Positions 1 through 57,510 of a stretch of 57,510 nt of DNA are shown here, in pieces; positions within the stretch are counted from its first letter, which is position 1, and every line of letters begins with the position of its first letter. A model generated the notes under the pieces. That model was not told the origin of the DNA. It searched no databases and saw only the letters and a list, made by a program, of their open reading frames with translations. The translations under genes were made by a program, and so were the position numbers. Location of the stretch: the IMG/VR virus record IMGVR_UViG_3300035698_011381; one strand, 5' to 3'. This DNA comes from a virus.

Positions 1-127
1 GCAGGGGCTTGTTCGTGTCGATAAGAAATGGAGCAGACCAAGGAAATACGAGAACGGGCATAAACTCAAGCGAGATTCCCATAAGCTAGAACGAACCATT
101 GAGTTTGAGAACTACCCCAGAAATCTA
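1..127. repeat. 127-bp terminal overlap, identical to 57384..57510 (circular contig closure)
   Basis: Direct reading: gcaggggcttgttcgtgtcg...ccccagaaatcta occurs at both window ends. The repeat lies inside one continuous ORF. Confidence 0.95.
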
Positions 128-6448: not shown

Positions 6449-6829
6449 ATGGAACCAGTTAGAAACCTGAATATAAGGTTCTCGTGCCCTGAAGACGTGG
6501 AAAACTTCTACACTTCGACGGGCATCTGTATCCCTAAATGCGTTAAGGGCACCGTGGCGGTGTTTGATCTTGGCGAGTTCACCGAGACCTCCAGAAAAGT
6601 AACAAAGCAAACAGGGCCTAGCCTCGTGGCGGAGTGGGAAGGGATGCCAGAATTCCACCAACCTAAGAGCATACCTTTCCTATGGATCATCCTGTCTGTA
6701 CCCCCTGAGTTTGATTCGGGTATTATGACGGAGTTGCTGGGCCAGAAGATCACAGACAGGACAAAAAGCGTGTGGCACCCGTACAAAGCACACCACAGAG
6801 TTGAGCGGAAGGTATGGATACATGAATAA
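6449..6829 (+). CDS. Hypothetical protein (W-x-GMPEF motif domain)
   Basis: ATG at 6449 just after the SLT stop. It contains EWEGMPEFHQP...SVWHPYK. From memory, a similar module precedes some phage DNA methylases; this is unverified. Confidence 0.4.
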   Translation: MEPVRNLNIRFSCPEDVENFYTSTGICIPKCVKGTVAVFDLGEFTETSRKVTKQTGPSLVAEWEGMPEFHQPKSIPFLWIILSVPPEFDSGIMTELLGQKITDRTKSVWHPYKAHHRVERKVWIHE

Positions 6830-7709
6830 CCCAAAACACCCTATTTATATTGTTTCCAAAGGCCGCTGGGATAGCAGGGTCACAAGCAGGGCTCTCGATA
6901 TAATGAACGTCCCTCATAAGCTGGTAGTAGAATCCGACGAGTACGCAGATTACGCAGAAGCCGTAGGGCCTGAGCGGGTGCTTGTCCTCCCAGAAAAATA
7001 CAAAGACGATTACGACACGTTCTGGGAAAGGGAGCCCGACAACAAGGTTGGTCCGGGGGCGGCGAGGAATTTCGTTTGGGATCACTCCACCGAACAGGGA
7101 CACTCACACCACTGGGTAATGGATGATAACCTAGAAGCCTTTTACAGGTTAAACCGTAACGTGAAGTACGAGAGCCGAACAGGGGCTATCTTCCGTGCGA
7201 TGGAAGATTTTGTAGAACGGTATTCTAACGTGGCAATCTCTGGGCCTAACTATGAAGCGTTTTGCAAGGCTGTAGACCCCGTACCTCCTCTGATTACTAA
7301 CACTAGAATTTACAGTTGTTTGCTGATCCGTAACGACATCCCTTACAGGTGGCGCGGGAGGTATAATGAGGACACGGACATTTGCTTACGAGCCCTCAAA
7401 GATGGGTGGTGTACTGTCCAATTCAATGCTTTCTTGCAGGGCAAAGTCACCACTCAACGAATGAAGGGAGGGAACACGGAGGAGTTCTACAGCGGAGAGG
7501 GGACAGTCCCTAAAAGTAAGATGCTGGAGGAGATGCACCCCGACGTGGCGAAGATGGTTCACAAGTTTAACCGCTGGCACCATCACGTAGATTACACGCC
7601 TTTCAAGGCGACTAAACTAACTAGAAAAGAGGGCGTTGTAGTCCCTTCAGGGGTAAATGAATACGGTATGAAATTAGTAATTGAAAAGGGTAGTAAGAAA
7701 TGTCGATAA
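6822..7709 (+). CDS. Putative GT-A-like glycosyltransferase
   Basis: ATG at 6822 overlaps the upstream stop. IYIVSKGRW is an N-terminal strand-loop, and the acidic motifs VMDDN and NEDTD resemble DxD-type nucleotide-sugar transferases. The assignment is tentative. Confidence 0.35.
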   Translation: MNNPKHPIYIVSKGRWDSRVTSRALDIMNVPHKLVVESDEYADYAEAVGPERVLVLPEKYKDDYDTFWEREPDNKVGPGAARNFVWDHSTEQGHSHHWVMDDNLEAFYRLNRNVKYESRTGAIFRAMEDFVERYSNVAISGPNYEAFCKAVDPVPPLITNTRIYSCLLIRNDIPYRWRGRYNEDTDICLRALKDGWCTVQFNAFLQGKVTTQRMKGGNTEEFYSGEGTVPKSKMLEEMHPDVAKMVHKFNRWHHHVDYTPFKATKLTRKEGVVVPSGVNEYGMKLVIEKGSKKCR

Positions 7710-9814
7710 CTTCCGATAAAATAGCCCGCATGAAGTCCCTCGCGCAGAGCGTAGGGGCTGTGTCCGTTGCCGCCGCGCCGTCGAAACGCCCGCCGTTGAA
7801 TTTCAATAAGATGAGATCCCGCGCCGTGGACACGATGAACGCGGAGATTATGCGCATCGTAAACGTCCCGGTACGGTACGAGCTGACCGAGGACGACCTC
7901 GAAGCCGTGTCAAAGCACTACTTTCAAGCCGAGGCCTTTATCAAGGGCGGTAGGCTCCTTCCTAAGCAGGCAGAATCGCTCATCGCGTTCAACGATACCG
8001 GCGGGGCGTTCCTACCGCTCGCGGTCGGAGGCGGGAAGACGCTTACCTCTTTGCTGATCGCCAACGACGCGTACCATGGCGGGATGGATAAGATTATGAT
8101 TATCGTGCCGCCGTCGCTCGCTACACAGCTCTGCGATACCGACATTAAACACTGGCGTCCGCGCACGATTTTCAATACCCCGATTCATCGCATCGCGGGG
8201 CTTTCAAAATCCAAGAGGAAATTACTCGCCAACTCCGGGCGCAGGGGTCTCTACATTTACACGTATTCCTTACTGTCACAGCCGGACGCGCACGAGATTC
8301 TGGATGCGATTTCCCCTGACCTGATTATTCTTGACGAGGCGCACTCTGTCTCCAAGAAATCCGCCCGCGCTCGCCGGTTCAATAAATACCTGAACGAGAA
8401 ACGCCCGAAGGTCGTCGCGCTCTCGGGAACCATGACACAGAAGATGCTTACGGATTACTTCGAGCTGGCGCGTGCCGCCCTCGGCGATAACAATTTCCTA
8501 CCGAACTCGCGCTCTCTTACAGAGGAGTGGTCGAAGATCATCGACAGTTCAGCGACGAGCCTTTCAGATTTCAGGAACGACACACTACCGAAAGCAGGGC
8601 CGCTTAAATACATTCTCAACTGGGCTCGTGAGAATTTCCCCGAGGAAACGTTCGACGGAGGGGTTAAAGGTTTCCGCAACGTGTTCCAGAAACGACTTAC
8701 CACGACCCCCGGTGTGGTCTGTTCGAGCGGGGACGATCTGCCTTATTCCCTCTATATCAAAAACGAGCCGATACCCCACCCCGAGAAGTACGAAGGATGG
8801 GATAAGTTACGGGAGCTCGTCCAGCAACTCGAACAGGAATGGCTCACGCCCAACGGCGACGAGATCGAGGAAGCCATGCACCTTTTCCGCTGGAAGTATT
8901 GGATAGAGGGCGCGGGATTCTACACGGAACAGTACTGGCCGGATATTGATTGGATGATGCGCCGTGAGAAATACGCGTCGGTCGCTGACGCTAAGGACAT
9001 CCTGAAACGGTCTCAGCAGTACCACTCCTGCCACCTCGGGTATCAGAGGAATCTACGGGCATGGATAACCGACCGCGCTCGGGCAGGGTTGGACACGCCC
9101 ATGCTCATCGGTAAAGATATGAGCATCCACGGCTATAAGAACGTCGGCTACGATCTGTTCTGTTCATGGCGCGAGTGGAAGGATTCCGATTTCGAGCGAC
9201 GTATCGACCGGAACAAGCGGGCGATAAGGGTCTGCGGCTTCAAGGTCGAGAAGGCCGTAGAGTGGGCGAAGAACCTTCCCAAGGGCGAAGGCGGGTTGAT
9301 CTGGTACGATAACGACGAGATGGGGGATTGGGTTTACGAGAGAGCAGTAGAGGAAGGGCTCGACCCATTATTGTGCAAAGCCGGAAAGGTATCGAACGTA
9401 CTCCTAAACCAGCCCGATAAGTGCCGAGGAAGGCTTATCATTTTAACGGTGAACGCGCACGGCACCGGCAAAAATCTCCAGTTCGACCACAACATGTTCT
9501 ACCTCCAGTGGCCGAGATCCGCGAAAACAGCAGAGCAGTCCCTAGGCCGACAGCACCGCATGGAGCAGGAGTACGACGAAGTAAACGTCACTACCTGTTT
9601 CACAACGGAGTTCGATAGGGTTCTGTTCGGCGCGACGTTAAACGATGCGGCTTACGTGCACCAATCACAGGGTAATGCACAGAAGATTATATACGCCACA
9701 CACACCCCCATGCCGGAAGTTGTCCCCTTTGAAATTCTCCAAGAATGGGGAGCCAAGCCCGGAGTTACTACCTCTGAAGCCCGTGATTTGTTAGAGGATC
9801 GTTTCGGGAATTGA
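7700..9814 (+). CDS. SNF2/Rad54-family SF2 helicase
   Basis: Motif I VGGGKTLTSL, motif II LIILDEAHSVSK, motif III ALSGTM, and C-terminal HGTGKNLQ and QSLGRQHR (motif VI). Confidence 0.8.
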   Translation: MSITSDKIARMKSLAQSVGAVSVAAAPSKRPPLNFNKMRSRAVDTMNAEIMRIVNVPVRYELTEDDLEAVSKHYFQAEAFIKGGRLLPKQAESLIAFNDTGGAFLPLAVGGGKTLTSLLIANDAYHGGMDKIMIIVPPSLATQLCDTDIKHWRPRTIFNTPIHRIAGLSKSKRKLLANSGRRGLYIYTYSLLSQPDAHEILDAISPDLIILDEAHSVSKKSARARRFNKYLNEKRPKVVALSGTMTQKMLTDYFELARAALGDNNFLPNSRSLTEEWSKIIDSSATSLSDFRNDTLPKAGPLKYILNWARENFPEETFDGGVKGFRNVFQKRLTTTPGVVCSSGDDLPYSLYIKNEPIPHPEKYEGWDKLRELVQQLEQEWLTPNGDEIEEAMHLFRWKYWIEGAGFYTEQYWPDIDWMMRREKYASVADAKDILKRSQQYHSCHLGYQRNLRAWITDRARAGLDTPMLIGKDMSIHGYKNVGYDLFCSWREWKDSDFERRIDRNKRAIRVCGFKVEKAVEWAKNLPKGEGGLIWYDNDEMGDWVYERAVEEGLDPLLCKAGKVSNVLLNQPDKCRGRLIILTVNAHGTGKNLQFDHNMFYLQWPRSAKTAEQSLGRQHRMEQEYDEVNVTTCFTTEFDRVLFGATLNDAAYVHQSQGNAQKIIYATHTPMPEVVPFEILQEWGAKPGVTTSEARDLLEDRFGN

Positions 9815-9927
9815 ACACACATTTATTAACACAATAAAAAATAAAATAAAAGATTGACGGAACGAGGAGCAGGCGTCACAGTGGCGTCCTTCTAAATGAG
9901 TAACCAAGCAACAGGAGGAGACAGAGT

Positions 9928-10563
9928 ATGATGAATCTGAACAGAGCAAAGACCATGTTCGGCGAGATGGGAAAAGTGGAAGTATCCACACGCCGCGAAG
10001 ACCTGAAGCCGGGAGAAGTTCAACTTTTCATTGGCTCGGTCAAGATGCTGGAAACACGGGAATTCAAACCCTACGTCCGCATCTCCGCAACAGTGCTGTG
10101 CTGTAAGCGAGACGGATCGGGACGCACCCCCGACGCAGAAAACTTCGAGGGGAATAGTAAAGGCGAGGAAGTATCCGTCTGTTTGTTCTCCGGCGATTAT
10201 TTCCAGAAGGAATTTAAATCCTTCATGCTCGCAGGGCTGGGAATGACCAAAGAAGACGCCGCTGGAATGGACGACGCGGAGTTCTTTGAAGCCAGTATGG
10301 CGATCTGCGGGATGAACGACAAAGGCGAGGACGTGGAAGCGGGAATCTTCGACGGCACGACCATCATCACCACTACCACGAAGGCGAACGTCGTTCCCGA
10401 CAAGACCGACCCTTCCAAACTGAAGACGTACCTGAACCACCGTTTTGTGGGCAAGGTCGAAGCGGCAGAAGTTGCCGAGTACCTCGACGACGAGGACATC
10501 AAAAAGTTCTTCGGTTCCGAGGAACAGTTCGGCAAGCTTGTCGAGCAGGGAGTCGCAGAGTAA
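9928..10563 (+). CDS. Hypothetical protein (possible ssDNA-binding protein with an acidic C-terminus)
   Basis: AGGAGG RBS; 211 aa; acidic tail YLDDEDIKKFF. The function is only guessed from position within the replication genes. Confidence 0.3.
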   Translation: MMNLNRAKTMFGEMGKVEVSTRREDLKPGEVQLFIGSVKMLETREFKPYVRISATVLCCKRDGSGRTPDAENFEGNSKGEEVSVCLFSGDYFQKEFKSFMLAGLGMTKEDAAGMDDAEFFEASMAICGMNDKGEDVEAGIFDGTTIITTTTKANVVPDKTDPSKLKTYLNHRFVGKVEAAEVAEYLDDEDIKKFFGSEEQFGKLVEQGVAE

Positions 10564-10578
10564 GGAATCACCGAGACC

Positions 10579-10604
10579 CCCTCCCTCCGGGGAGGGTTAT
10601 CTTT
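10579..10604 (+). terminator. Rho-independent terminator
   Basis: ccctccc-tccg-gggaggg hairpin followed by ttatcttt. Confidence 0.65.
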
Positions 10605-10627
10605 AACCAGCAAAGGAGACTGAAAAA

Positions 10628-10810
10628 ATGATAGTCGGATACCAACCAAGCTCAGAAGCGAGAAAAATCATTAAGTTGATTCGCACTAACCGCCGCCAGC
10701 GCAAAATGGCAAAGTCCATGAAATCGAACACTGCCGAAGACCGCGCCATAGCTATCTGTTCTCGCGGCTACTACAAAACTCTAAAGCTAATCGCACGAGC
10801 GATGGCGTAA
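10628..10810 (+). CDS. Small basic hypothetical protein
   Basis: AAAGGAGAC RBS; 60-aa ORF ending 10 nt before the tmRNA. Confidence 0.5.
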   Translation: MIVGYQPSSEARKIIKLIRTNRRQRKMAKSMKSNTAEDRAIAICSRGYYKTLKLIARAMA

Positions 10811-10819
10811 CAATTTAAC

Positions 10820-11202
10820 GGGGCTGACTGGTTTCGACTGGTTAGACAGAAAATAAAGTTCATGTCGTGGTTGGTCGGTGGGCCACGTAAAAAGCCGTCC
10901 AAAACATAAATGCTAAAACGAAAGTTCTAGGATTCATCGGCGGAGCTCCGGCTCTCGCAATCGCCGCTTAACTGAGGTGTGATGAACGGGTCGAAGAAGA
11001 TGCCAGAGGATCGACGACCTGAACTGCTAAGACTGGTGCCCGTAAGGGAGTCCGACCGTGGAGGGGCTAAAACCGACGGAAACCCGTTTTGCTGGTTTCG
11101 GATAAAACTAGTTGGTGGAGGTGGCACCAGTTGCCACCCTGAAAACATGTAAACCTTTATTGGAAGCTGATTAGGACGCGGGTTCGATTCCCGCCAGCTC
11201 CA
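10820..11202 (+). ncRNA. ssrA: tmRNA (transfer-messenger RNA), one-piece form; tag ORF 10912..10971
   Basis: The 5' end GGGGCTGACTGGTTTCGAC, the internal CGTAAAAAGCCG, and the 3' end GGACGCGGGTTCGATTCCCGCCAGCTCC closely parallel E. coli ssrA. The acceptor stem GGGGCTG/CAGCTCC has a G3:U pair. The T-arm is GCGGG-TTCGATT-CCCGC. The tag frame GCT AAA ACG...GCC GCT TAA gives AKTKVLGFIGGAPALAIAA. Confidence 0.9.
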
Positions 11203-11351
11203 AACCTTTTGGGGGTAGAAACAGGGGATGCGAGGGGCGGCACCGAGCAAGCTGTCCTGCCGCTTTGACAGAAGAAAAGGAAGATAAAAATGGATAAAAC
11301 AAACACCGTAAGGAACCTGTTAAAAATCCCCAAGCGTTTGGGGGTTACGAG

Positions 11352-11558
11352 ATGACAAGGACACGCCCCACCGACAACAGGAAGCCCTCACGGGACGGAA
11401 AGTTAAAAGGCTACTGCTCCCGATGCGGCATGATGGTGATGGTGGGCGAGGCGACCTGCCCGAAACCTCTCTGCGGCGGGAAAAAGGTCTCAAGTACCCC
11501 GCCACCTGAAAGTGGAATGCTCGCCCCGAAACAAAGCAACATAAGGAATTACATTTAA
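11352..11558 (+). CDS. Small zinc-ribbon protein
   Basis: CSRCG...CPKPLCGG cysteine pairs; 68 aa. Confidence 0.45.
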   Translation: MTRTRPTDNRKPSRDGKLKGYCSRCGMMVMVGEATCPKPLCGGKKVSSTPPPESGMLAPKQSNIRNYI

Positions 11559-11576
11559 CCAGAAGGAGACCCAGAA

Positions 11577-14354
11577 ATGAACAACATAATCGCTTTTGAC
11601 ACCGAGACTAAACTTATCGGAAAGACCCAAGTAGTTCCCGATTTTATCTGCGCACAGTTCGCTATCCTGACCGAAGAGGGTAAGCCGTTCTCTTGGATGC
11701 GCTCCCGACTCTGCCCGGACTACCAAGAACACATCCGTGACATGTTCACCGATCCCGATATGCACATCGTCACGCACAACGCCGCATTCGACCTGTCTGT
11801 CGTCGCCAAGGATATGCCTGAGCTGATCCCATTCATCTGGAAAGCCCTCGACGAAGAGCGTATCCACGATACGATGATCCGCGAGATGCTCTATAACCTC
11901 ACCGCGTCCGGCGACCTCGACACCATCGAACTGCACGGCGTAAAGACACGGGCCGAATACAGCCTCGCGGCTCTCGAAAAACGGTACCTCGGAATCGACC
12001 GGTCAGCAGAAAAAGAAGACGGCGACTCGATGCGTATGAACTACGAAGCTGTTATGGACATGCCCTTGGCGGAATGGCCTGACGAGTTCGTCAAATACGG
12101 TGAAGAAGATCCCGAGGGAACTCTCCTCGTGTTCCTCGAACAGGAAGTAGAGCGGCAGAAATTGATTGACCGCACCGGATACGATCCGTTCGTTACGGAA
12201 GGGTTCCGCGTACGGGTTCACTTCGCTTTGCAGACAATGACCACCCGAGGCAACAGAATGGACACGGAGCGCGTTCTGGAGGTCACGAAGGAGTTTGATA
12301 CACTTTACAACGACCCTGCCCTTGTACGGCCTCTCGTGCTGTCTACGTTCATTTCGGAATACGCCAAAGCCAGCGGCGAGAAGATCACAGCGGAATTCAT
12401 AGCCGAGTCGCTCGAAGCGTTCGAGGGTCTCGACAAGAAGGAGCAGAAAAAGTGGATCGGAAAAGGAATCGTAATTCCAGCCGTCCCACCGATGCCGTAC
12501 AAAAACGGTGCCAAGGAACATCTGGAAACGTGCTACGGACACAAAGAACACCCCGACTATTCCGGCAAGACCGTAAAGGACTGTGGATGCCCTCCGAAAG
12601 TAAAAGGCGGACAGCCGGAGAAGGGGTCGAACAATGCTCTCTGGGCGTACATCTGGAAAGCCGGTCTCGAAAACCCGTTGATGGAAGTGTGGGCGTCCGA
12701 CAGCCTAATCGCCAAACTCAAGGAAGAGGGATTGTTCGAGGACTTCATCGAACGCGGTCGGGTGATTAAACAGAACGAGGTTCCTGAACTCCTGTGCGGG
12801 CCGAACGGTTTACCAGAAGGGTGGCGCGTCTCGGTAGATAAGGAATGGCTCGCGTCGTTTGCGATCCTCGACCCGATGCTTGAACTGCTCGCGGAGCGTC
12901 GGAAATATGCGAAGATTATCACCTCCTACCTGCCCGGCCTTTATTGGGTCGAGGGAATGGAGAACTGCCCGTCGTTCCTCGAAGGGGAGATGAGTAAGCT
13001 CGCAGGTAAGACGCCCGCTGATGTCGTGCACTCCTGCTTCCGTCCGTTGAAGCGTACCGGACGCACCAGCTCCTACGCCAACAAACGCGGGAAAGGCAAG
13101 AACGAAAAATACACCTTCCCCTCCATGAACGGTCAGCAGGTAGACCCACGGATTCGGCAGTGTGTGATCCCTCGGGAAGGTTATAAGCTTTTCAGTATCG
13201 ACTTCTCGGCCATGGAGCTAGGGACGGCGGCACAAACCTGTCACTCCCTGTTCGGTTACTCCGTGCTCGGGGATCTGATTAACGAAGGCAAGGACGTTCA
13301 CTCCTACCTCGGGTGCCGCATTGCCAAGGAGCTCGACCATTGGTTCGGGAACATCGTTGCTGACTGCTCCTCCAACGATATGTACGACCTGTTCCTTGAG
13401 TTCAAAAAGGACGACGCGCCTTGCGACTCGGAACAATTCGCCGAGACCTTCAAGGAGACTGGAAAAGACGAGGCTCCTACCCTTGCTGACTTCTTCGCCT
13501 ACTATCGGAAATTCGCTAAGCCGACCGGCCTTGGGTATCCCGGCGGACTTGGCCCGAAAACCTTCGTGTCGTACGCCAAGGCCACGTACGGGGTTACAGT
13601 TGACCTCGATACGGCCTCGACCCTGCGGAACATTTGGAAATCGACCTTCCCCGAAATGGCGCAATATCTCGTTCACGTAGGCAAGCGGTGCTTCGACCCG
13701 AACCACGCGTCAGAAACCAAGGAAGACGCGGACGGTAAAAAGTACAAGAAACAATTTTACTGCTACGACACGCCGCTCGGGATGCACCGCGCGAAGACAG
13801 ATTTCTGTGCCTGTGCGAACGGCCAAGCTCTCCAGTCGATTTCGGCAGAGGGTGCGCTACTGGGCACCTGTGAAATTATGCGTGGCATCTCTGGAACAGA
13901 CGAGATCCTCAAGGACGATGCCGACGGTACCGCCAACGTGCGCCCGACGATCTTCATTCACGACGAGCTGTTCGGCGAGATCCGAGACGACGACCGCCTG
14001 ACGGAGCGTGTCGAGCGCATGCAAGCCATACTTAAAGAGTGTATGGAAATCATCACCCCCGACGTACGAGCGGGCACAGAGGCGTGCTTGATGAACCGCT
14101 GGAGCAAAGGAGCTTTCCCTTACTACGTGGACGGCGTTCTGAAACCGTACGAAGATATGATCGAAGGGGATGAACCGGAGGAAATCTACTATCTCGCGAA
14201 CACCAAGAGCTACTGCGCATGGGAGTCCCTGTTCGAGGGTGAGGTGTCCGGCACACTAATCAGGATAGATAAAGAACAGTTCGAGCGGATGGCCACGGGG
14301 CTGTCGTTTAACGGCGATAGGTATACCACGCGGCGGTTGAAGGAGGCTAAGTAA
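11577..14354 (+). CDS. Family A DNA polymerase with 3'-5' exonuclease domain
   Basis: Exo I IAFDTET, Exo II HNAAFD, pol motif A DFSAMEL, motif B RKFAKPTGLGYPGG, motif C IHDELFGE. Confidence 0.9.
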   Translation: MNNIIAFDTETKLIGKTQVVPDFICAQFAILTEEGKPFSWMRSRLCPDYQEHIRDMFTDPDMHIVTHNAAFDLSVVAKDMPELIPFIWKALDEERIHDTMIREMLYNLTASGDLDTIELHGVKTRAEYSLAALEKRYLGIDRSAEKEDGDSMRMNYEAVMDMPLAEWPDEFVKYGEEDPEGTLLVFLEQEVERQKLIDRTGYDPFVTEGFRVRVHFALQTMTTRGNRMDTERVLEVTKEFDTLYNDPALVRPLVLSTFISEYAKASGEKITAEFIAESLEAFEGLDKKEQKKWIGKGIVIPAVPPMPYKNGAKEHLETCYGHKEHPDYSGKTVKDCGCPPKVKGGQPEKGSNNALWAYIWKAGLENPLMEVWASDSLIAKLKEEGLFEDFIERGRVIKQNEVPELLCGPNGLPEGWRVSVDKEWLASFAILDPMLELLAERRKYAKIITSYLPGLYWVEGMENCPSFLEGEMSKLAGKTPADVVHSCFRPLKRTGRTSSYANKRGKGKNEKYTFPSMNGQQVDPRIRQCVIPREGYKLFSIDFSAMELGTAAQTCHSLFGYSVLGDLINEGKDVHSYLGCRIAKELDHWFGNIVADCSSNDMYDLFLEFKKDDAPCDSEQFAETFKETGKDEAPTLADFFAYYRKFAKPTGLGYPGGLGPKTFVSYAKATYGVTVDLDTASTLRNIWKSTFPEMAQYLVHVGKRCFDPNHASETKEDADGKKYKKQFYCYDTPLGMHRAKTDFCACANGQALQSISAEGALLGTCEIMRGISGTDEILKDDADGTANVRPTIFIHDELFGEIRDDDRLTERVERMQAILKECMEIITPDVRAGTEACLMNRWSKGAFPYYVDGVLKPYEDMIEGDEPEEIYYLANTKSYCAWESLFEGEVSGTLIRIDKEQFERMATGLSFNGDRYTTRRLKEAK

Positions 14355-38200: not shown

Positions 38201-40906
38201 CTACGCGGTTAGGACTCGTGTACTGGCGACTGCGTGTGGGTAGTGGCCTAAAACCACGCTGTCAGCCTCGTCTGGAGACATCCCGAGCTCCCCATCGGAC
38301 GAATCAGCGTTGCGTTTTTTATACTCGTCCTTGGTTTCGATCTTAATTTTGCCGTGTTTGGTCACGGAATACAGTCGGTTTGTAAGCTGTTGAAAGAGAC
38401 TTTTATTGTACTGTAGGAACATACGGTGGGCACGAACCTCTTTAGCAAACAAGCACCACGCTTCCGTGATTTTATTGTCGTATTTTTGCGACTCGTGCGC
38501 CGTGTTTTGGGAATAGAACTCGTGCATCTTCCTTCCCATGCGTCTTTGACTGCCGAGCATCCCTGCGGCCATCTCTCCCATGCCGGAAGTATCCACAACA
38601 AACGTACATTCGCTGTTACCCCATCCCAGATGTTCTTGCAGTACGACAGCCCTGTCTATGGTGGCGTTCGGGTCGGTGCGGCTGTAGGCTTCTAGCTTCA
38701 GCATGATATTTCCTGAGAATGTAGAGATTGAGTTTTTGTCTCCGCCGTATCGAGCCAAGTCGATGCCGATTTGTTTCCGAACCGGCCGCATCTTGACATT
38801 TACCGCCAGTGCCGCCGCTTTTGCCTCTGGTTTGGTGCACGCGAGGAGGTCGTTTTCGTTGATAAGCACTGACGGGTCGGTGTGCGGAAATTCCCCGAGC
38901 ACGCGGACGCGGTAAACATCGGAATCCATGCCGAATTCCTCGGCGATTTCTTCATTTCGACGCTTGGAAAACCAAGGGGTTTCCGGTGTCTCTTCCCCAT
39001 TCCAGTGTAGGCAGTGCCAAGGGTTGTCCAGTTGGGAATGGAAACAGTCGAAGAAGGAGCAAGTTCGTGTGTTCGGGTTTCCGATCTGGAGCCATAAGAA
39101 GGTACCTTCGGCGTTGGACATCGTTCCCTTGATCGTGTCCATGATTCCTCGTGCGATACCGGAGCTTTCTTCGCACAACATGAGCAGGTAGGGGTTATGG
39201 ATTCCCTGAAACGCTTCTGGCCGGTTAGCGGTGGCAAGGTAGCACCCCCAGATGTCTTTACGACTTCCCATAATGCCGTACCCTGTGCCGGTGAAGTTGA
39301 AAAAGGAACTGATACGCGGGTCGCCTGATTGTATGCGTCCCTGAGCCTCTGAGAGCCATACGTTTTTACACTGCCGCATTGTCGGGGCTGTGACGACCGC
39401 GAGGCTCTTCGGATACTTGAGATTCCACCACGGCACGACTATGGCGTCGGCGGCGGTATTATGGACAACCAGATTTCTAGCCACGAAATTTCCATACTCT
39501 GGCACCTCTAAATCGTAGACGGGCGTGTTTGTCCTGTCTTGTGTGTTACTGACAACCCGCACCCAGTAAATATCGTTCGATGCCCACTTAGCGTGTTTGC
39601 CATCGTATCCTGTAGCCGATACGAGTTCTTTGAATTTTTTCCTGCTCAATAGAGAGTAGTTGCGCCCTCTCCACCCTTTTTCCCGCAGACGTGTCTTGGG
39701 GATACCTAATTCTTCCGCTATCTCGGTCATCGCTTTGTCGTCATAGGGAACAACGTCGGTGTTTGTGTTTTCTGGCTTACTCCAGATGTTCGTCAGATAG
39801 TTTACGTGTCCTTTTTTTATTTTATCAAACGAGTGGAAACCTTTAAGTATCTCCACGTAAAAGAGCACCAGAGATTCCCTGCCTGAGATACTTAGACGCC
39901 AAGAGTCAAATGTTTTCGTTCCCAATTTAACTTTTTTATACCTTTTCCTGCTGTGGATACCCCAAAAAAGTAGTGCTGTTTGCACATCGTCTATCAGCCC
40001 TTCACTGGCTAGGCAGATGCCTGCTCCATCCTTCTCAAAGTACCCGTCGCACAGCCACAAAGTAGCCAGTATCTCAGCCGCCCTGTCCTGCCGGATACTC
40101 CAAAATCTATCCGGCAATCTTTTGTGTTTGGCTAACGATCTTTTTGACCACCGAGACAACACATCGTTTGACGCTTTGTGGTGCACCCTTATGTCCCGAG
40201 CTTTGGAGGGCGACGAACTGTTGAGGTATGTCATCTCTAAAGAATTACAGCAGTGTAGGAAATCATCCAAACTATCGGAAGGTTCTTGCGTGAAACGAAC
40301 TCCGTGCTTGGCTGTTGTTCCTCCGTCGCCAAGGATGTAGCCTACCCACCTTACTTCCTCGCTGGGTACTTCTTCAGTTCCTACCCATTGAAGGTTACGA
40401 GGCATGGCTACAAGGCATCCGTTAGTTATCTCAGACGCTTCTTGCCATCCCGAACTAGTATATACAGGGTGGTCGGTGCTGAGCCGTGTAGACTGCCCTG
40501 AATCTGTTCTAATTGTTGTGCATTTCTTGTATCCTGATGGGAAACACCTAGCACTTGCTGTGTGTGTTTTTTCTGTTGCCTCATCCATGCTCCAAACAAG
40601 AAGGTCTTCTCGCCCTATAAGGTCTCTGATTTTTTTAACTCCCTCGGACGTTAGTATTTCGGTATCTCCGTGAAGGCATTTCCCCGGCCCCTGCCCGGAG
40701 CGCACGGCAACGTTCGAGTACCCTTCTTGAACAGCGTCGAGGAGCTGTTTCTGTTGCCACGTCGGTTTAAAATCCAGATAGAAGCACCAAGCATAGATAT
40801 CCTCAGTAATTTCTTTGTAGAAGTCGTGTAGGAAGTGCTTAGACTTAGAGGGCCGAAGGCCGAACATTTCGCCTTCTGACTGTCGCTTGTTTTCTATCCC
40901 GAACAT
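38201..40906 (-). CDS. terL: Terminase large subunit, interrupted by an intein
   Basis: Walker A SGQGPGK/T is split by the intein. Walker B is LLMLCEES. The RNase-H-like nuclease motifs are IGIDLARYGGD and VVDTSGMG. The spliced product would be 494 aa. Confidence 0.85.
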   Translation of the reverse strand: MFGIENKRQSEGEMFGLRPSKSKHFLHDFYKEITEDIYAWCFYLDFKPTWQQKQLLDAVQEGYSNVAVRSGQGPGKCLHGDTEILTSEGVKKIRDLIGREDLLVWSMDEATEKTHTASARCFPSGYKKCTTIRTDSGQSTRLSTDHPVYTSSGWQEASEITNGCLVAMPRNLQWVGTEEVPSEEVRWVGYILGDGGTTAKHGVRFTQEPSDSLDDFLHCCNSLEMTYLNSSSPSKARDIRVHHKASNDVLSRWSKRSLAKHKRLPDRFWSIRQDRAAEILATLWLCDGYFEKDGAGICLASEGLIDDVQTALLFWGIHSRKRYKKVKLGTKTFDSWRLSISGRESLVLFYVEILKGFHSFDKIKKGHVNYLTNIWSKPENTNTDVVPYDDKAMTEIAEELGIPKTRLREKGWRGRNYSLLSRKKFKELVSATGYDGKHAKWASNDIYWVRVVSNTQDRTNTPVYDLEVPEYGNFVARNLVVHNTAADAIVVPWWNLKYPKSLAVVTAPTMRQCKNVWLSEAQGRIQSGDPRISSFFNFTGTGYGIMGSRKDIWGCYLATANRPEAFQGIHNPYLLMLCEESSGIARGIMDTIKGTMSNAEGTFLWLQIGNPNTRTCSFFDCFHSQLDNPWHCLHWNGEETPETPWFSKRRNEEIAEEFGMDSDVYRVRVLGEFPHTDPSVLINENDLLACTKPEAKAAALAVNVKMRPVRKQIGIDLARYGGDKNSISTFSGNIMLKLEAYSRTDPNATIDRAVVLQEHLGWGNSECTFVVDTSGMGEMAAGMLGSQRRMGRKMHEFYSQNTAHESQKYDNKITEAWCLFAKEVRAHRMFLQYNKSLFQQLTNRLYSVTKHGKIKIETKDEYKKRNADSSDGELGMSPDEADSVVLGHYPHAVASTRVLTA
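39458..40678 (-). mobile_element. Intein (407 aa) with a LAGLIDADG homing endonuclease, inserted in the TerL P-loop
   Basis: Starts CLHGDTEILT (block A). STDHPVY is block B. VGYILGDGG and LWLCDGYF are LAGLIDADG motifs. It ends VYDLEVPEYGNFVARNLVVHN, followed by +1 Thr. Confidence 0.85.
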
Positions 40907-45980: not shown

Positions 45981-46072
45981 GCCCGCCCCGCCCGCCCGAT
46001 TAAAACAGATTTGAAAACATAATATTGACACGTTACTCTTTATCTGTTACGCGTGCCCGCGTTCCTATAAGC

Positions 46073-46295
46073 GCGGGCCGGTATACGCGGGCCGGTATAG
46101 GATACAGGATACAGCGGGCCGGTATAGGATACAGGATACAGCGGGCCGGTATAGGATACAGGATACGCGGGCCGGTATACGCGGGCCGGTATACGCGGGC
46201 CGGTATAGGATACAGGATACAGCGGGCCGGTATACGCGGGCCGGTATAGGATACAGGATACAGCGGGCCGGTATAGGATACAGGATACGCGGGCC
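46073..46295. repeat. Iteron-like array: 10 full copies plus one partial copy of GCGGGCCGGTATA, separated by either C or GGATACAGGATAC(A)
   Basis: Core copies start at 46073, 46087, 46114, 46141, 46167, 46181, 46195, 46222, 46236 and 46263, with a partial copy at 46289. Confidence 0.95.
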
Positions 46296-46552
46296 CCGTG
46301 ATCGTACCTTTTACATTTTTAAAAACTAGGCCTGATTTGAAGATCACGAAAAAAGGCCGGGTTGCTCTTGTAAATTTAAAAAACACTACTTTTCGGGATA
46401 TAGGGGGGAAAATACGGTTTACGCTTGTATTTTTAAAAAAGGGCCCTTTTTTGAAGATCAATATAATGACCCCTTCACAATTCCAAATAACCACGTATTT
46501 TTAATTTTACACAATCTTAAAAGGTAACTAATATATATTTGAAAACTTTTAA

Positions 46553-46582
46553 TATATACCATATAACCCATAGTGGTATATA
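46553..46582. repeat. Inverted repeat tatatacca-N12-tggtatata in the AT-rich segment
   Basis: Perfect 9-bp arms. The related tatatataccata recurs near 46706. Confidence 0.8.
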
Positions 46583-46783
46583 TAAAACATATTTGAGTTA
46601 AATAGTTTTTCGCGCTCGATCGCCACAATTCCGGATACCCGGCACTTTTTAAATTTACAAGCCGATATTCCCTTTTATCTTTGTAAGTGTTTCATTTTAG
46701 CTTTTTATATATACCATAGGAATCAGCACTATCCGTCTATAGCGCTCTATTTTTAAAAAACAAAAGAAAATTGAAAAAGAGGG

Positions 46784-46811
46784 TTGACATATAGATGGGG
46801 CGTGCTAAATT
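46784..46811 (+). promoter_or_regulatory. Sigma70-like promoter candidate for the early block
   Basis: TTGACA, a 16-nt spacer containing TGc, then TAAATT (an extended -10-like element), about 50 nt upstream of the first RBS-supported early ATG. Confidence 0.45.
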
Positions 46812-46862
46812 GACATTATGAAAACAGCCCAAAACAGAAACCAACCAAAAGGAGTCAAGATT

Positions 46863-47087
46863 ATGCGAGAGTCAATAGAAATAGTTAAACTAGCGCCAAG
46901 CCGCTACGAAGTGCAGATAGTTAAAGATGACCCTAAATTTGATAAGAGCTACAGCATAGCGGGCGAATACAAAACCCTCTCTATTGCTATCAGTACCGCA
47001 AAGCGTATTGCAAAAAGAAATGGCGGAATGATAATAGGCAGGCCGTCCACAGCAAACGAAAAGAGAGCCGCAAAGAGGATTGCCTAA
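46863..47087 (+). CDS. Early hypothetical protein
   Basis: AAGGAG RBS before the ATG at 46863, in frame with track ORF 46818..47087. Confidence 0.55.
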   Translation: MRESIEIVKLAPSRYEVQIVKDDPKFDKSYSIAGEYKTLSIAISTAKRIAKRNGGMIIGRPSTANEKRAAKRIA

Positions 47088-47125
47088 CCATGTTCAAGAC
47101 AGAAACCAAACCAAAGGAGAACATC

Positions 47126-47296
47126 ATGACAATTAGAACGCTCAAAGCAATCAATAAGAAAACCGGAGAAACGAAATCATTCTGTGATTGTGATTGCAAC
47201 AGACTGATAAAGCGGCGGGATGAGTTCATATCCGACATGACAGATCGCGGGGAATACTGGACTTACGCCCCAGTCTCTATTGTATCGGGAATCTAA
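47126..47296 (+). CDS. Early hypothetical protein
   Basis: AAAGGAGA RBS before the internal ATG of track ORF 47090..47296. Confidence 0.5.
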   Translation: MTIRTLKAINKKTGETKSFCDCDCNRLIKRRDEFISDMTDRGEYWTYAPVSIVSGI

Positions 47297-47342
47297 AAAC
47301 CCGCCCACGCAAGGGGCAAAGTAAACGCATAAAGGGGAAAAG

Positions 47343-47435
47343 ATGAAACGTGAATCTGAACTCATAAACGAGCTAATAGTAATAATCGTATCGGCTGTAA
47401 TCGTAGCACTAATCATTGCTGTAAAAACAGCGTAA
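47343..47435 (+). CDS. 30-aa hydrophobic peptide
   Basis: AAAGGGGAAAAG leader. MKRESELINELIVIIVSAVIVALIIAVKTA. Confidence 0.4.
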   Translation: MKRESELINELIVIIVSAVIVALIIAVKTA

Positions 47436-47452
47436 AGAATAAAGGGGAAAAA

Positions 47453-47626
47453 ATGAAAGCACCTACAGAAGCACTTAATAAGAAAATAAACGAGCTTGCA
47501 ACTCTATGTAATAACATTAGCACCTACCTTTCCGGGTGCCATAGCGAAAACGAACAAACAGCCGCACTTATAAAGAGTATAGTCACTAGGCTTTGGGATG
47601 AATTAGACACTATCCCAGAAAAGTAA
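47453..47626 (+). CDS. Early hypothetical protein (57 aa)
   Basis: AAAGGGGAAAAA leader. MKAPTEALNKKINELATLCNN... Confidence 0.45.
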   Translation: MKAPTEALNKKINELATLCNNISTYLSGCHSENEQTAALIKSIVTRLWDELDTIPEK

Positions 47627-47649
47627 TTAAACGAAAAAAAGGGGAAAAG

Positions 47650-47802
47650 ATGACACTTGAAAAACAGATTATGAGAGAAGAATTAACCATGTTGAAAGAA
47701 GAACTAAAAGAAGCGGTTGCGCTATACCGCCGCGAGCCTAACGACTGGAATGGAGAGTCCGTTTCCGATTTACGCGAGGAAATCGCAAAGCTAGCACGCT
47801 AA
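47650..47802 (+). CDS. Early coiled-coil protein (50 aa)
   Basis: AAAGGGGAAAAG leader. MTLEKQIMREELTMLKEELKEAV... Confidence 0.45.
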   Translation: MTLEKQIMREELTMLKEELKEAVALYRREPNDWNGESVSDLREEIAKLAR

Positions 47803-47850
47803 CCGGTTCGCCCCACGCAAGGGGCAAAGTAAACGAAAAAAGGGGAAAAG

Positions 47851-48027
47851 ATGACACTTGAAAAACAGATTAGAAACGCATACGAGAAAGCCTATGGGGT
47901 CAAAACAGTTGACTATGAAGGCGAAATTTCCAAAGAAAAAAATACAATCGCCGTCGAAATTTGCGAAGATGGAACGGTTTTTGAACATGAGAAAGGTGGC
48001 GTTTCTTACGTTAAAATAATAATTTAA
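47851..48027 (+). CDS. Early hypothetical protein (58 aa)
   Basis: Same leader and the same first 7 codons (MTLEKQI) as 47650..47802. Confidence 0.45.
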   Translation: MTLEKQIRNAYEKAYGVKTVDYEGEISKEKNTIAVEICEDGTVFEHEKGGVSYVKIII

Positions 48028-48054
48028 AATGAGATTCAACTAAAAGGGGAAAAG

Positions 48055-48327
48055 ATGAAAGCCACGAAATTAAAGTACCTAACAGATAAAAACGGAAAAG
48101 AGCCTTTCTTTTCAGACTTGAAAGAAAAAGGGCGTATAGTAACAGAGCCACTTCATTGTCACACTGCCGGACTTATGCAAACTTCGACAGGATACGGTTC
48201 AAAACTAGCTACGCCCTACAAAATAAATGACTGTAACAGACTGAAAAGAATTTACGCCATTTGTTACAGCAACGCTTCCAGTTTATATATTTTCCGCAAA
48301 GACAAGCGCGTCTTTATCCATAGCTAA
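48055..48327 (+). CDS. Early hypothetical protein
   Basis: AAAGGGGAAAAG leader; MKATK start. Confidence 0.55.
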   Translation: MKATKLKYLTDKNGKEPFFSDLKEKGRIVTEPLHCHTAGLMQTSTGYGSKLATPYKINDCNRLKRIYAICYSNASSLYIFRKDKRVFIHS

Positions 48328-48357
48328 CAGCATAAAGAAAGAAGGGGAAAAGAAACC

Positions 48358-48606
48358 ATGAAAACGAAACTAGAAAAACAGGCCAAAGGGGAAAAGATGA
48401 CAAAGACAGAATCAAGAATATCAACAGGGAAAAATGATTATCTCTCTATCACCTTGCGGGGGAAGTTCGCGGCAGAATACAAATTCGACTTCATACTCTT
48501 GAAATGTTTTGTTTGCATTGGAGCAGATTTGTTTCCCTCAGCAATCCACGAATACACCGACAAGCAAGATATGTTTGCCGACATTGAAAAACTACGCAAC
48601 GCATAA
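48358..48606 (+). CDS. Early hypothetical protein
   Basis: GAAACC-ATG-AAA leader. An alternative start at 48396 also has a GGGGAAAAG leader. Confidence 0.5.
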   Translation: MKTKLEKQAKGEKMTKTESRISTGKNDYLSITLRGKFAAEYKFDFILLKCFVCIGADLFPSAIHEYTDKQDMFADIEKLRNA

Positions 48607-48616
48607 AGGGGAAAAG

Positions 48617-48793
48617 ATGAAAGCCACGAAAACGCGCTACAAGAAAATTGATCTATACGTTTACAATCCTGTTACAAAACAATTTGCATACTACGCATCC
48701 ACTACATGGCACGGGACACGCAAGAGCGCAAAAAGGATGCTAGTTGATAAACTAATGATTAAGCCGGAACACGTCAAAGCATCAGTGGCATAA
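48617..48793 (+). CDS. Early hypothetical protein (58 aa)
   Basis: AAAGGGGAAAAG leader; the MKATK start is identical to that at 48055. Confidence 0.5.
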   Translation: MKATKTRYKKIDLYVYNPVTKQFAYYASTTWHGTRKSAKRMLVDKLMIKPEHVKASVA

Positions 48794-48814
48794 ACCCGAA
48801 AAGGAAAAGAAACC

Positions 48815-48925
48815 ATGAAACCGAAAAAAAGAAACACGCCCGGCACGTACAAAACCCCTTCGATCTTCACCCTCTTAAAAGAGTATTTTAAAGAGTACCG
48901 CGCCCGGCACGCCCGAAACATTTAA
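48815..48925 (+). CDS. Possible 36-aa basic peptide
   Basis: AGGAAAAGAAACC-ATG leader; it terminates at the TAA inside the first 27-bp repeat unit. Confidence 0.3.
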   Translation: MKPKKRNTPGTYKTPSIFTLLKEYFKEYRARHARNI

Positions 48926-48976
48926 AACAGACTGAAACCCCGAAACATTTAAAACAGACTGAAACCCCGAAACCCC
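48915..48976. repeat. 27-bp tandem repeat x2.3 (gaaacatttaaaacagactgaaacccc)
   Basis: Units at 48915..48941 and 48942..48968, then a partial gaaacccc. Confidence 0.9.
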
Positions 48977-48994
48977 ATAGAAGGAAAAGAAACC

Positions 48995-49864
48995 ATGAAA
49001 ACGAAAAAAAGCAAAATAGAACAAGCTACAGTAGAAACATACTTGCCGATATTTCCCGGATTTTACGGTACACTATACGGCGCGGAGGATTCCGACGACG
49101 AAGAGCAGGCGATAAACGGCCTGTTAGAGCCCGCGGGATTTGCGCCCTCTCAAATAAACCCACTCTCAAAGGCTGTTTTCGACTTTGGAAGCGGCGCTGT
49201 AGAATTCGACTATTCCACATACTACCGCGATTATCTGGAAGAAATATCGGAAACCGTAGCGGCGGAATTGGAAGGTGTGCCGGGTTTCGTTTCTATGGAA
49301 CTACAAGGAATGAGGAGCCCGAAAGAATACAATTTTGCAAATGATTCCGGCGACGTTATTTTAAACCTATCAAATGAAAGGGCCTTTCGGGCGTGGATTT
49401 TAAAACAGTGCCGAATTGATCGTGCCGGGTTTGCGGAATACATACGGAAAAAATACACGTCTCGAAGCGGTTTTATGTCTTTTTATTCCAGTGACTCGAA
49501 AGACTGGATAAATGACATACGGGCCGGGCTCGACGAATTAGACGGGCACAAACTAGGCAGACTGTTAGACTATTATTTTTCCGAAATATCGGAGTTTGAC
49601 GACTGGGCACTTTACGAAACAGCAGAAAAGCCTTACTTGTCGGAATACATGAGTGGGCCGGTAGTCGATATTTTTGAGAAGGAAATGGGAAACCTACCGG
49701 AAAAGGTTTCCGGTATACTCGAAAGCATAAACGCGGGCCGGGAACAATTGAAAGCGTACGCGGAAAAGATGCCTTGTAACGCGGCAGCCCGCCAAGAGAC
49801 CGGGCTAATCAAAAACGAAACGAAACTTTATAAGGCGGCAGTCGAAACACTTATAGAAGCGTAA
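48995..49864 (+). CDS. Early hypothetical protein (289 aa)
   Basis: Cassette leader. It starts MKTKKSK...YLPIFPGFYGTLY and is acidic. Confidence 0.6.
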   Translation: MKTKKSKIEQATVETYLPIFPGFYGTLYGAEDSDDEEQAINGLLEPAGFAPSQINPLSKAVFDFGSGAVEFDYSTYYRDYLEEISETVAAELEGVPGFVSMELQGMRSPKEYNFANDSGDVILNLSNERAFRAWILKQCRIDRAGFAEYIRKKYTSRSGFMSFYSSDSKDWINDIRAGLDELDGHKLGRLLDYYFSEISEFDDWALYETAEKPYLSEYMSGPVVDIFEKEMGNLPEKVSGILESINAGREQLKAYAEKMPCNAAARQETGLIKNETKLYKAAVETLIEA

Positions 49865-49899
49865 AACAGACTCCAAACCCCGAAAAGGAAAAAGAAACC

Positions 49900-50244
49900 A
49901 TGAAAGCAACATTTAAGAAAATCGGAACAGACTACTTGCCCGCCATTAAGCACAAAAGCGGCAGACTTGAAACCCTTCACGGAGACGCGCTAGCTACTAC
50001 CGCAACGGCTACGAAGTACGCTCAGTTTGAAATAAACGAGCGTAGCCGGCGGCACGCTAAAGCAACCCCGGCACCCGTGGAAACGGCCCCGGCCCCGGCT
50101 TGGATAACTCCAAACCAATTCGCGGCACTATGCGACGAATACCTTATTCTTCCAGCCTTGGCACTCGAAAACGAGACTGTAAAAGGTGCCGTGCATCAAA
50201 AAGATTTAGACGCTTTGAAAGAAGCACTTGCAACTGAATTCTAA
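49900..50244 (+). CDS. Early hypothetical protein
   Basis: Cassette leader aacagactccaaaccccgaaaaggaaaaagaaacc-ATG; MKAT start. Confidence 0.55.
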   Translation: MKATFKKIGTDYLPAIKHKSGRLETLHGDALATTATATKYAQFEINERSRRHAKATPAPVETAPAPAWITPNQFAALCDEYLILPALALENETVKGAVHQKDLDALKEALATEF

Positions 50245-56994: not shown

Positions 56995-57510
56995 ATGAAA
57001 CTTATGCAAGGCGATTGCCTAGAACGAATGAAAGAAATTGAGAGTGGATCAGTTGACATGGTGCTAACCGACCCGCCCTACGGAACCACGGCCTGCAAAT
57101 GGGATTCTGTTATCCCGCTTGAGGCGATGTGGGAGCAGCTTAAGCGCGTTATCAAGCCGAACGGTGCTATAGTGATGACTGCGAGCCAGCCTTTTACGAC
57201 GACGCTAATCGCATCCAACATGAAGATGTTTAAGTATTGTTGGGTGTGGGAAAAAAGCAAGGGTTGCAACTTTACTCACGCCAAGAATATGCCTATTAAA
57301 TTCACAGAGGATGTCTGCGTGTTCTCGCCTGCGCCCATAGGGCATAAAGTTCAATTAAAAGAACGCAGAATGTCGTACAATCCGCAGGGGCTTGTTCGTG
57401 TCGATAAGAAATGGAGCAGACCAAGGAAATACGAGAACGGGCATAAACTCAAGCGAGATTCCCATAAGCTAGAACGAACCATTGAGTTTGAGAACTACCC
57501 CAGAAATCTA
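56995..57510 (+). CDS. DNA methyltransferase (beta-class N6A/N4C type), 5' part; continues at 2..418 across the circular junction
   Basis: GGAGG RBS 7 nt upstream of the ATG. Translation MKLMQGDCLERMKEIESGSVDMVLTDPPYG carries the DPPY catalytic motif. The frame is open to the window end and in phase with ORF 164..418. Confidence 0.85.
   Translation, partial: MKLMQGDCLERMKEIESGSVDMVLTDPPYGTTACKWDSVIPLEAMWEQLKRVIKPNGAIVMTASQPFTTTLIASNMKMFKYCWVWEKSKGCNFTHAKNMPIKFTEDVCVFSPAPIGHKVQLKERRMSYNPQGLVRVDKKWSRPRKYENGHKLKRDSHKLERTIEFENYPRNL
57384..57510. repeat. Second copy of the 127-bp terminal overlap
   Basis: Identical to 1..127. Confidence 0.95.

Follow-up and report, generated by a model that had tools for sequence, protein, structure and literature searches.

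Phages that carry ssrA, the gene for transfer-messenger RNA (tmRNA), with no smpB have been listed since at least 2014, among them the mycobacteriophages Bxz1, Cali, Catera and Wildcat and Bacillus phage G (PMC4131195), and in a 2022 survey 402 of 18,146 phage genomes (2.3%) proved to carry a tmRNA gene, the unique structures numbering 133 (PMC9004378). Further examples are found in Methylophilales phage Melnitz (PMC9004378) and in huge phages (PMC7162821), and a tmRNA is annotated in the GenBank entry of the crAss-like phage cr50_1. Known phage tmRNAs are full genes in lytic phages, most of them without SmpB and integrase, and the roles proposed for them are the maintenance of hijacked translation or the tagging of proteins for degradation. 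The virus record IMGVR_UViG_3300035698_011381 of IMG/VR, a stretch of 57,510 nt analysed here as a whole (the window), contains a one-piece tmRNA gene of 383 nt which shares all these properties and is a further example of a phage tmRNA without SmpB. Most described phage tmRNAs belong to large phages with tRNA arrays, whereas the window represents a 57-kb phage in which ARAGORN finds no tRNA gene, and its tmRNA gene forms a cassette of 384 nt by itself within the replication operon. The Melnitz tmRNA is of the two-piece type, with a glutamine riboswitch controlling it, and SmpB, for which the window phage has no match, is encoded in some of the huge phages as well. A blastn comparison of the window tmRNA to deposited phage tmRNAs returned only 47 nt of cr50_1, in the T-arm region.

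Compared to the bacterial one-piece tmRNA of E. coli K-12, the window gene has the same 7-bp acceptor stem with a G3:U pair, the T-arm, helix 2, a first pseudoknot (PK1) with CGUAAAAAGCCG and a resume codon of the GCN type; its stop codon also lies within the helix 5 loop, and its tag likewise ends in a hydrophobic residue followed by A-A. It differs in being phage-encoded, in having no partner smpB and in its unencoded CCA, and its tag is hydrophobic, 19 residues long and has a net charge of +2, while the E. coli tag is acidic and has 10 residues. With a probability of roughly 0.78, we regard it as the gene of a functional one-piece tmRNA that a non-integrating siphovirus-like phage bears in its replication-gene operon, as a small accessory cassette, and that acts in ribosome rescue through the machinery of the host.

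Identity and architecture of the tmRNA gene

Apart from a tmRNA with the tag AKTKVLGFIGGAPALAIAA and a stop codon, on the + strand at 10820..11202, ARAGORN calls no RNA gene in the window. The only Rfam match given by cmscan is RF00023, at 10820-11203 (+). Its score of 130 bits (E 1.4e-50) lies so far above the gathering score of 47 that a chance match is excluded. The match is not truncated and spans positions 1-374 of the 374 in the model. The locus 10820-11202 is thereby confirmed as a complete one-piece tmRNA, as had been proposed in an earlier reading of the letters of this DNA (the sequence-only reading), and, the PK3/PK4 region apart (see below), every testable feature that defines RF00023 is present in the RNA; the encoded CCA is absent and is not a defining feature. 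The two ends quoted in that reading, 5' GGGGCUGACUGGUUUCGAC and 3' GGACGCGGGUUCGAUUCCCGCCAGCUCCA, are present in the sequence, as is the G3:U pair, and CCA is indeed missing (..CUCCA, then AAC). The internal CGTAAAAAGCCG, said there to be identical to E. coli, does occur in PK1 of E. coli K-12 ssrA, and the tag frame of that reading agrees exactly with the coding part that ARAGORN places at gene positions 93-152. The parts of the gene are the following, position 1 of the tmRNA being window position 10820.

10820..11202, + strand: one-piece tmRNA (ssrA) gene of 383 nt, the last of them the discriminator A, with CCA unencoded (ARAGORN and RF00023)

10820..10826 with 11195-11201 (tmRNA 1-7 with 376-382), + strand: acceptor stem GGGGCUG/CAGCUCC, 7 bp including the G3:U alanine identity pair

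10838..10845 with 11167-11174, + strand: helix 2a, CUGGUUAG/CUGAUUAG, 8/8 pairs

Helix 2b, AAUAAAG/CUUUAUU, 7/7 pairs

Helix 2d, CAUG/CAUG, 4/4 pairs

10866..10899, + strand: PK1, stem 1 CGUGG/CCACG and stem 2 GUCGGU/GCCGUC, containing CGUAAAAAGCCG as in E. coli

10912..10971, + strand: tag frame, with resume codon GCU at 10912-10914, the tag AKTKVLGFIGGAPALAIAA and stop codon UAA at 10969-10971

10960..10983, + strand: helix 5, AUCGC/GUGAU, 5/5 pairs, with the stop codon UAA in its loop

10987..11037, + strand: PK2, stem 1 CGGGUCG/CGACCUG and stem 2 GCCAG/CUGGU, 7/7 and 5/5 pairs

11038..11145, + strand: PK3/PK4 region, with several H-type alternatives, e.g. UUGGUG/CACCAG with GGUGG/CCACC

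11178..11194, + strand: T-arm, GCGGG, loop UUCGAUU and CCCGC, 5/5 pairs

11202, + strand: discriminator A

With its 7/7 acceptor pairs and 5/5 T-arm pairs, the tRNA-like domain conforms to the tmRNA type, which has a T-loop like GUUCGAnUC and lacks an anticodon arm. PK1 is situated just ahead of the resume codon, which in tmRNAs needs neither an AUG nor a Shine-Dalgarno sequence. The resume codon GCU is preceded by AUAAAU, in agreement with the Rfam consensus AAUAAuU. The stop codon in the loop of helix 5 is the usual tmRNA arrangement, and pseudoknots 2-4 vary among lineages, some of which are without them (PMC1168896).

Fold and tag compared between the window and a sister phage

A sister phage, with a family A DNA polymerase (PolA) 85% identical to that of the window and ~77% nucleotide identity across the PolA gene, is represented by contigs L405 and L265 of one NCBI assembly, which is broken inside the tmRNA. 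The two contigs overlap exactly over 55 nt and when joined give a tmRNA of 363 nt in the same slot as in the window, including an encoded CCA (3' end ..CUCCACCA); its 5' part is confirmed by the Logan contig L406. The two tmRNAs are 71% identical overall, and six pairs have changed on both sides with pairing retained:

Helix 2a, 19:355, C:G in the window and U:A in the sister

Helix 2b, 33:342, A:U in the window and C:G in the sister

PK1, 47:68, C:G in the window and A:U in the sister

PK1, 49:66, U:A in the window and A:U in the sister

PK1, 59:76, G:C in the window and A:U in the sister

T-arm, 360:374, C:G in the window and G:C in the sister

Several further one-sided changes also retain pairing, e.g. 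a U:G pair in helix 2a which is C:G in the sister. All seven pairs of the acceptor stem are standard in both phages, PK1 has 5/5 and 5/6 pairs in the window and 5/5 and 6/6 in the sister, and helix 5 corresponds to a 6-bp stem in the sister (AAUCGC/GCGAUU). PK2 is fully paired in both, with three one-sided changes that retain pairing.

The tag of the sister is ANTKVIGFIGAPIALAIAA. Eight of its codons are identical to those of the window, six have changed synonymously and five encode another residue, the most conservative replacement being L to I; the stop codon is TAA in the window and TAG in the sister. ALAIAA, the C-terminal six residues, is the same in both tags, although its codons differ by four silent changes. 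In this one pair of sequences, the paired double changes and the synonymous changes in the tag codons together point to selection acting on the peptide as well as on the fold of the RNA.

The tag peptide

For the 19 residues of AKTKVLGFIGGAPALAIAA, the grand average of hydropathy (GRAVY) is +1.22 and the net charge is +2, the values for the E. coli tag ANDENYALAA being -0.43 and -2. Among 214 sampled bacterial tags, a sample biased by the search patterns used, four are as hydrophobic, five are as long and three have a charge of at least +2. The ending is far more common: a search for the GGTTCGATTCC T-loop together with a tag ending AIAA before the stop gave at least 120 loci from species-representative bacterial genomes, and at least about 110 tags called by ARAGORN end AIAA. 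Many of the AIAA tags listed end LAIAA, and they come from several phyla (e.g. AEDNLAIAA in Lachnospiraceae, AEPQLAIAA in Acidimicrobiales, AKDNSALAIAA in Gaiellaceae, ANENLAIAA in Riflebacteria and AKNEDEVIVDFGNSALAIAA in Oceanispirochaeta). Thus, of the two peculiarities ascribed to the tag in the sequence-only reading, the long and hydrophobic chain stands, while the LAIAA ending is no departure from a normal degron; the unusual part of the tag is its body, which is also net positive. As other phage tmRNAs have long and odd tags of 27, 23 and 18 residues, even the long body has a precedent in viruses.

The phage genome and the position of the gene

The first 127 nt of the window (1-127) are identical to its last 127 nt (57384-57510). 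This exact overlap implies a circular assembly and a true genome of 57,383 bp, and the same genome has been assembled independently as contigs of 57,340 bp (ENA) and 57,473 bp (JGI) with other start points. Comparisons to PHROGs and Pfam place a replication module on the + strand (a DUF5906 protein, an exonuclease, a glucosyltransferase-like protein, an SNF2-type helicase and PolA) and a structural module on the - strand (portal, tail proteins, tape measure, major tail protein, capsid protein E and head protease), the latter also containing a large intein-bearing open reading frame (ORF) at 38201-40906; a third block holds methyltransferase and HNH genes. The tmRNA gene lies inside this genuine phage genome, with a circular contig, independent assemblies, phage genes on both sides and a sister with the same slot. 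The window is a complete, uncultured and apparently non-integrating phage with the gene set of a long-tailed (siphovirus-like) phage.

No predicted gene of the complete genome matches an integrase, a recombinase (serine recombinases included) or SmpB in the Pfam and PHROGs scans, in line with the lack of integrase and SmpB noted in the sequence-only reading. Since the phage has no SmpB match, the tmRNA would have to rely on SmpB of the host. At the DNA level, a megablast search with 20 kb of the window gave nothing similar among deposited phages, and tblastn searches with the capsid protein and PolA gave no cultured relative above 28% identity.

The tmRNA gene is situated between a 60-amino-acid ORF and a 68-amino-acid ORF just upstream of PolA, all on the same strand. 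The neighbouring features, of which some are also kept in a variant of the sister that lacks the tmRNA (L404, see below), are the following.

10579..10596, + strand: terminator-like hairpin (a consensus match only) after a 211-amino-acid gene, upstream of the 60-amino-acid ORF and the tmRNA

10628..10810, + strand: 60-amino-acid ORF, adjoining the tmRNA upstream, kept in the sister as well as in the tmRNA-less variant; the cassette has its left edge at the stop codon of this ORF

10811..10819, + strand: leader CAATTTAAC, 9 nt, from the stop codon of the upstream ORF to position +1 of the tmRNA; its motif is kept in the cassette of the sister (TCAATTTAACAAAA)

11352..11558, + strand: 68-amino-acid ORF downstream of the tmRNA, kept in the sister and in the tmRNA-less variant

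11577-14354, + strand: PolA, after the 68-amino-acid ORF

The ~130 nt between the tmRNA and the 68-amino-acid ORF (11233-11351, +) are absent from both the sister and the tmRNA-less variant, and contain a 21-amino-acid ORF (11290-11355) which overlaps the next ORF via ATGA.

Proposed function and its alternatives

As a functional accessory tmRNA, the cassette would be co-transcribed with the flanking replication genes of the + strand, because its leader of only 9-14 nt leaves no room for a promoter of its own and no sigma-70-like promoter was found in 9800-11700, in a scan for promoters of that type alone. Host RNase P would cut the 5' end, and the 3' end would be completed by host 3' nucleases and the CCA-adding enzyme, the latter being needed since CCA is unencoded in the window. 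The G3:U pair would allow charging with alanine by the alanyl-tRNA synthetase of the host, after which host SmpB and EF-Tu would deliver the tmRNA to ribosomes stalled on mRNAs that are broken or lack a stop codon. Resuming translation at GCU, these ribosomes would append AKTKVLGFIGGAPALAIAA, the ALAIAA end of which would serve as a normal ClpXP-type degron. The likely benefit would be an extra capacity for ribosome rescue while mRNA is cleaved during infection, with ribosomes being freed for the synthesis of phage proteins. What is proposed here on expression, processing, charging, SmpB dependence and fitness benefit builds on established tmRNA biology and on proposals made for other phage tmRNAs (PMC9004378, PMC7162821).

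A number of observations weigh against such a functional role, in the RNA as well as in its distribution. In the PK3/PK4 region, indels separate the window from the sister, the posterior probabilities of the Rfam alignment are low, and an enumeration of stems gave many alternatives with no unique solution and no covariation support; of the pseudoknots, PK1 and PK2 do pair. The unencoded CCA of the window adds a maturation step, which the sister, with its encoded CCA, does not need. An encoded 3' CCA is common in tmRNA genes, though not universal, and can be added after transcription. The nested minimum free energy fold of the whole RNA is not significantly more stable than those of shuffled sequences (z = -1.46), as is to be expected for a pseudoknotted RNA, and gives no support. 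The covariation is that between only two sequences, one of them a join of two contigs. Moreover, an ENA contig (L404) which is 97-98% identical to the sister over ~5 kb lacks exactly 384 nt, and six relatives with 61-66% PolA identity (L140, L186, L187, L266, L410 and L413) are without a tmRNA.

Leader TCAATTTAACAAAA, tmRNA and TTTTTAA together make up the 384 nt missing from L404. The junction in L404, which a TAA repeat flanks, has the stop codon of the small ORF on its upstream side and the GGAG ribosome-binding site serving the following ORF on its downstream side (L404:3885-3900, against L405:1712-1735 and L265:225-250). In two other assemblies contigs break inside the tmRNA, the outcome that a presence/absence polymorphism would cause in an assembly graph. 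Because L404 lacks the cassette and six relatives have no tmRNA, the gene is best described as a dispensable, accessory element, apparently a small promoter-less cassette with a patchy distribution that has long been kept in one sub-lineage. In relatives, the slot between the 211-amino-acid gene and PolA is variable and holds a methylase, YopX or small ORFs. In favour of a functional gene, a more distant syntenic relative (L412, PolA 57%) has a tmRNA in the same slot, with 106.6 bits and the tag AKVITFPAPLAQAA. Just upstream of it (L412:2975-3058, +) is a tRNA-like sequence with the acceptor GGGTTGCGG/CCGCAACCC and the T-arm GCGGGTTCGACCCCCGC, which is called neither by ARAGORN nor by Rfam at the gathering threshold and may be an unusual or degenerate tRNA. 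Two distant PolA relatives, L180 and L235, have unrelated tmRNAs directly downstream of a tRNA gene (L180:1616-2231 and L235:6942-7411), with tags of 23 and 18 residues, and the tRNA of L235 receives a 4-base anticodon call (tcaa). An unrelated viral contig (L501:4664-5044) has the tag AKKVIEFPTASAVAA, which shares the K-V-I-x-F motif.

One explanation that goes beyond added capacity, and which we consider unlikely though the best of the rivals, is that the phage tmRNA competes with that of the host, and that its long, hydrophobic and positive tag alters the fate of the rescued chains, for example by delivery to a membrane protease or Lon, by aggregation or by escape from an SspB-like adaptor. 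A tag body of a kind that is rare among the sampled bacterial tags is consistent with this, as is the core TKV[LI]GFIG, retained in the sister despite nucleotide changes, and the K-V-[IL]-x-F motif recurs in L412 and in L501. However, the search which returned L501 required K-V-x-x-F by design, the sample of bacterial tags is biased, and the tag of the host itself may look alike; a similar bacterial tag is that of Oceanispirochaeta. The ALAIAA end is in addition an ordinary degron variant, and as endings of this type are widespread in bacteria, degradation of the ClpXP type is the simplest expectation. A related and equally doubtful idea is that of a tmRNA lineage maintained by phages, in which the long basic hydrophobic tag, A-[KN]-T-K-V-[LI]-G-F-I-G...ALAIAA, to which the tag of L412 is possibly related, would be selected for a role unlike that in the host, the cassette being gained and lost among close phages according to the host met. 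In this case the tag might direct rescued chains either to the membrane or to a different protease, or alternatively the tmRNA might act in counter-defence, by clearing ribosomes stalled by abortive-infection RNases of the host.

Somewhat less probable still is that the cassette is a neutral passenger, host-derived DNA with little or no function that is being lost from a variable region of the phage. The presence/absence polymorphism within a population of 97-98% identity, the many relatives without the gene, the loss of CCA in the window copy and the variable slot would all fit this explanation. Against it, the same slot has been retained in two phages that have diverged to ~77% nucleotide identity in PolA, six pairs have changed on both sides while the defined helices are intact except for one terminal pair, the tag end is invariant despite silent changes, the Rfam score is still very high, and the sampled genomes contain no close bacterial source.

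There is only a slim chance that the RNA serves mainly as a sink for host SmpB, or blocks trans-translation of the host in some other way, as proposed for the molecule of mycobacteriophage DS6A. That molecule is likewise phage-borne and derived from ssrA and has no accompanying SmpB gene. A molecule made up of nothing but the tRNA-like domain is noted to inhibit tmRNA strongly, perhaps by SmpB titration (PMC4131195), and the window phage is also without a SmpB match. However, the DS6A molecule consists of the tRNA-like domain alone, while the window RNA keeps the full mRNA-like domain and the pseudoknots; the mRNA-like domain, the context of the resume codon, PK1 and the stop codon in helix 5 are all intact, and the tag is conserved at the peptide level in two phages, none of which a decoy would need.

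Finally, it is hardly conceivable that the locus is a remnant of ssrA left at a phage attachment site (attP) by integration or excision, or an ordinary coding sequence: many temperate elements do integrate into ssrA and carry its 3' end, as do the integrase-linked partial copies at attP or attL/attR, and ORFs of 57 and 107 amino acids mechanically overlap the tmRNA region, but the full-length match to RF00023 extends beyond the 3' end over all 374 positions in a complete genome with no integrase or recombinase match, so that the gene is not an attP-type fragment, as the sequence-only reading had also stated, and the substitutions between window and sister follow the RNA helices and the short tag frame rather than the overlapping ORFs.

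Donor and host lineage

The suggestion in the sequence-only reading that the tag and the tRNA-like domain may hint at the host lineage did not lead to a named donor, as the global identity to the window tmRNA is at most 60% among the sampled bacterial tmRNAs, a value no better than that for E. coli ssrA (~60%), to which blastn gave no match. A 5' motif, GGGGCTGACTGGTTTCGAC, is common to Acidimicrobiia, Flavobacteriia and some Burkholderiales, and the best global identity among 114 tmRNAs with this motif is 60%. The 3' motif common to the window and the sister had no match in viral or genome contigs, and a back-translated pattern for APALAIAA with a stop matched genomes 17 times, none of these (0/17) inside a tmRNA. 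A search with the PK1 motif gave two other viral tmRNAs with ordinary tags, blastn against plasmids matched the T-arm only, and a PolA scan of bacterial genomes gave only two matches, both distant and in metagenome-assembled genomes. The closest sampled bacterial tag is that of Oceanispirochaeta, AKNEDEVIVDFGNSALAIAA, in an RNA only 58% identical to that of the window, which may be taken as a weak lead to the host or donor. A possible resemblance to cyanobacterial tags of the type ANNIVxF...A.AA is likewise a weak lead.

Other features of the phage genome

Within the head/packaging module, the 901-amino-acid ORF at 38201-40906 (-) bears an intein splicing domain (PF14890, 5.4e-21) in which a LAGLIDADG homing endonuclease (PF14528, 2.6e-10) is embedded. 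Its matches to terminase large subunit PHROGs are weak, and the terminase label rests equally on its position. The ORF at 6801-7709 (+) matches PHROG 842, beta-glucosyl-HMC-alpha-glucosyltransferase (2.4e-55), which together with the methyltransferases hints at modified DNA. A DNA methylase fragment at 164-418 probably starts near the other end of the window. The region 46000-50000 has a low GC content (0.41-0.43, compared to ~0.53 elsewhere) and is dense in small ORFs without family matches, and may be an early or hypervariable region.

Significance

Phage tmRNAs have been catalogued, yet a role has been demonstrated in none of the published accounts cited here. The present case is distinctive in combining a small phage free of tRNA genes, a minimal 384-nt cassette, a natural plus/minus pair and a conserved long, hydrophobic and basic tag. 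If the cassette only adds rescue capacity, the finding remains a routine annotation. The normal degron end joined to an abnormal body, conserved in two diverged phages, makes the idea of tag retargeting testable. Since the cassette is isolated and the phage has no tRNA genes, its effect is not confounded by a tRNA array, and the genomes of 97-98% identity with and without it constitute an ideal natural pair for comparisons of fitness or competition.

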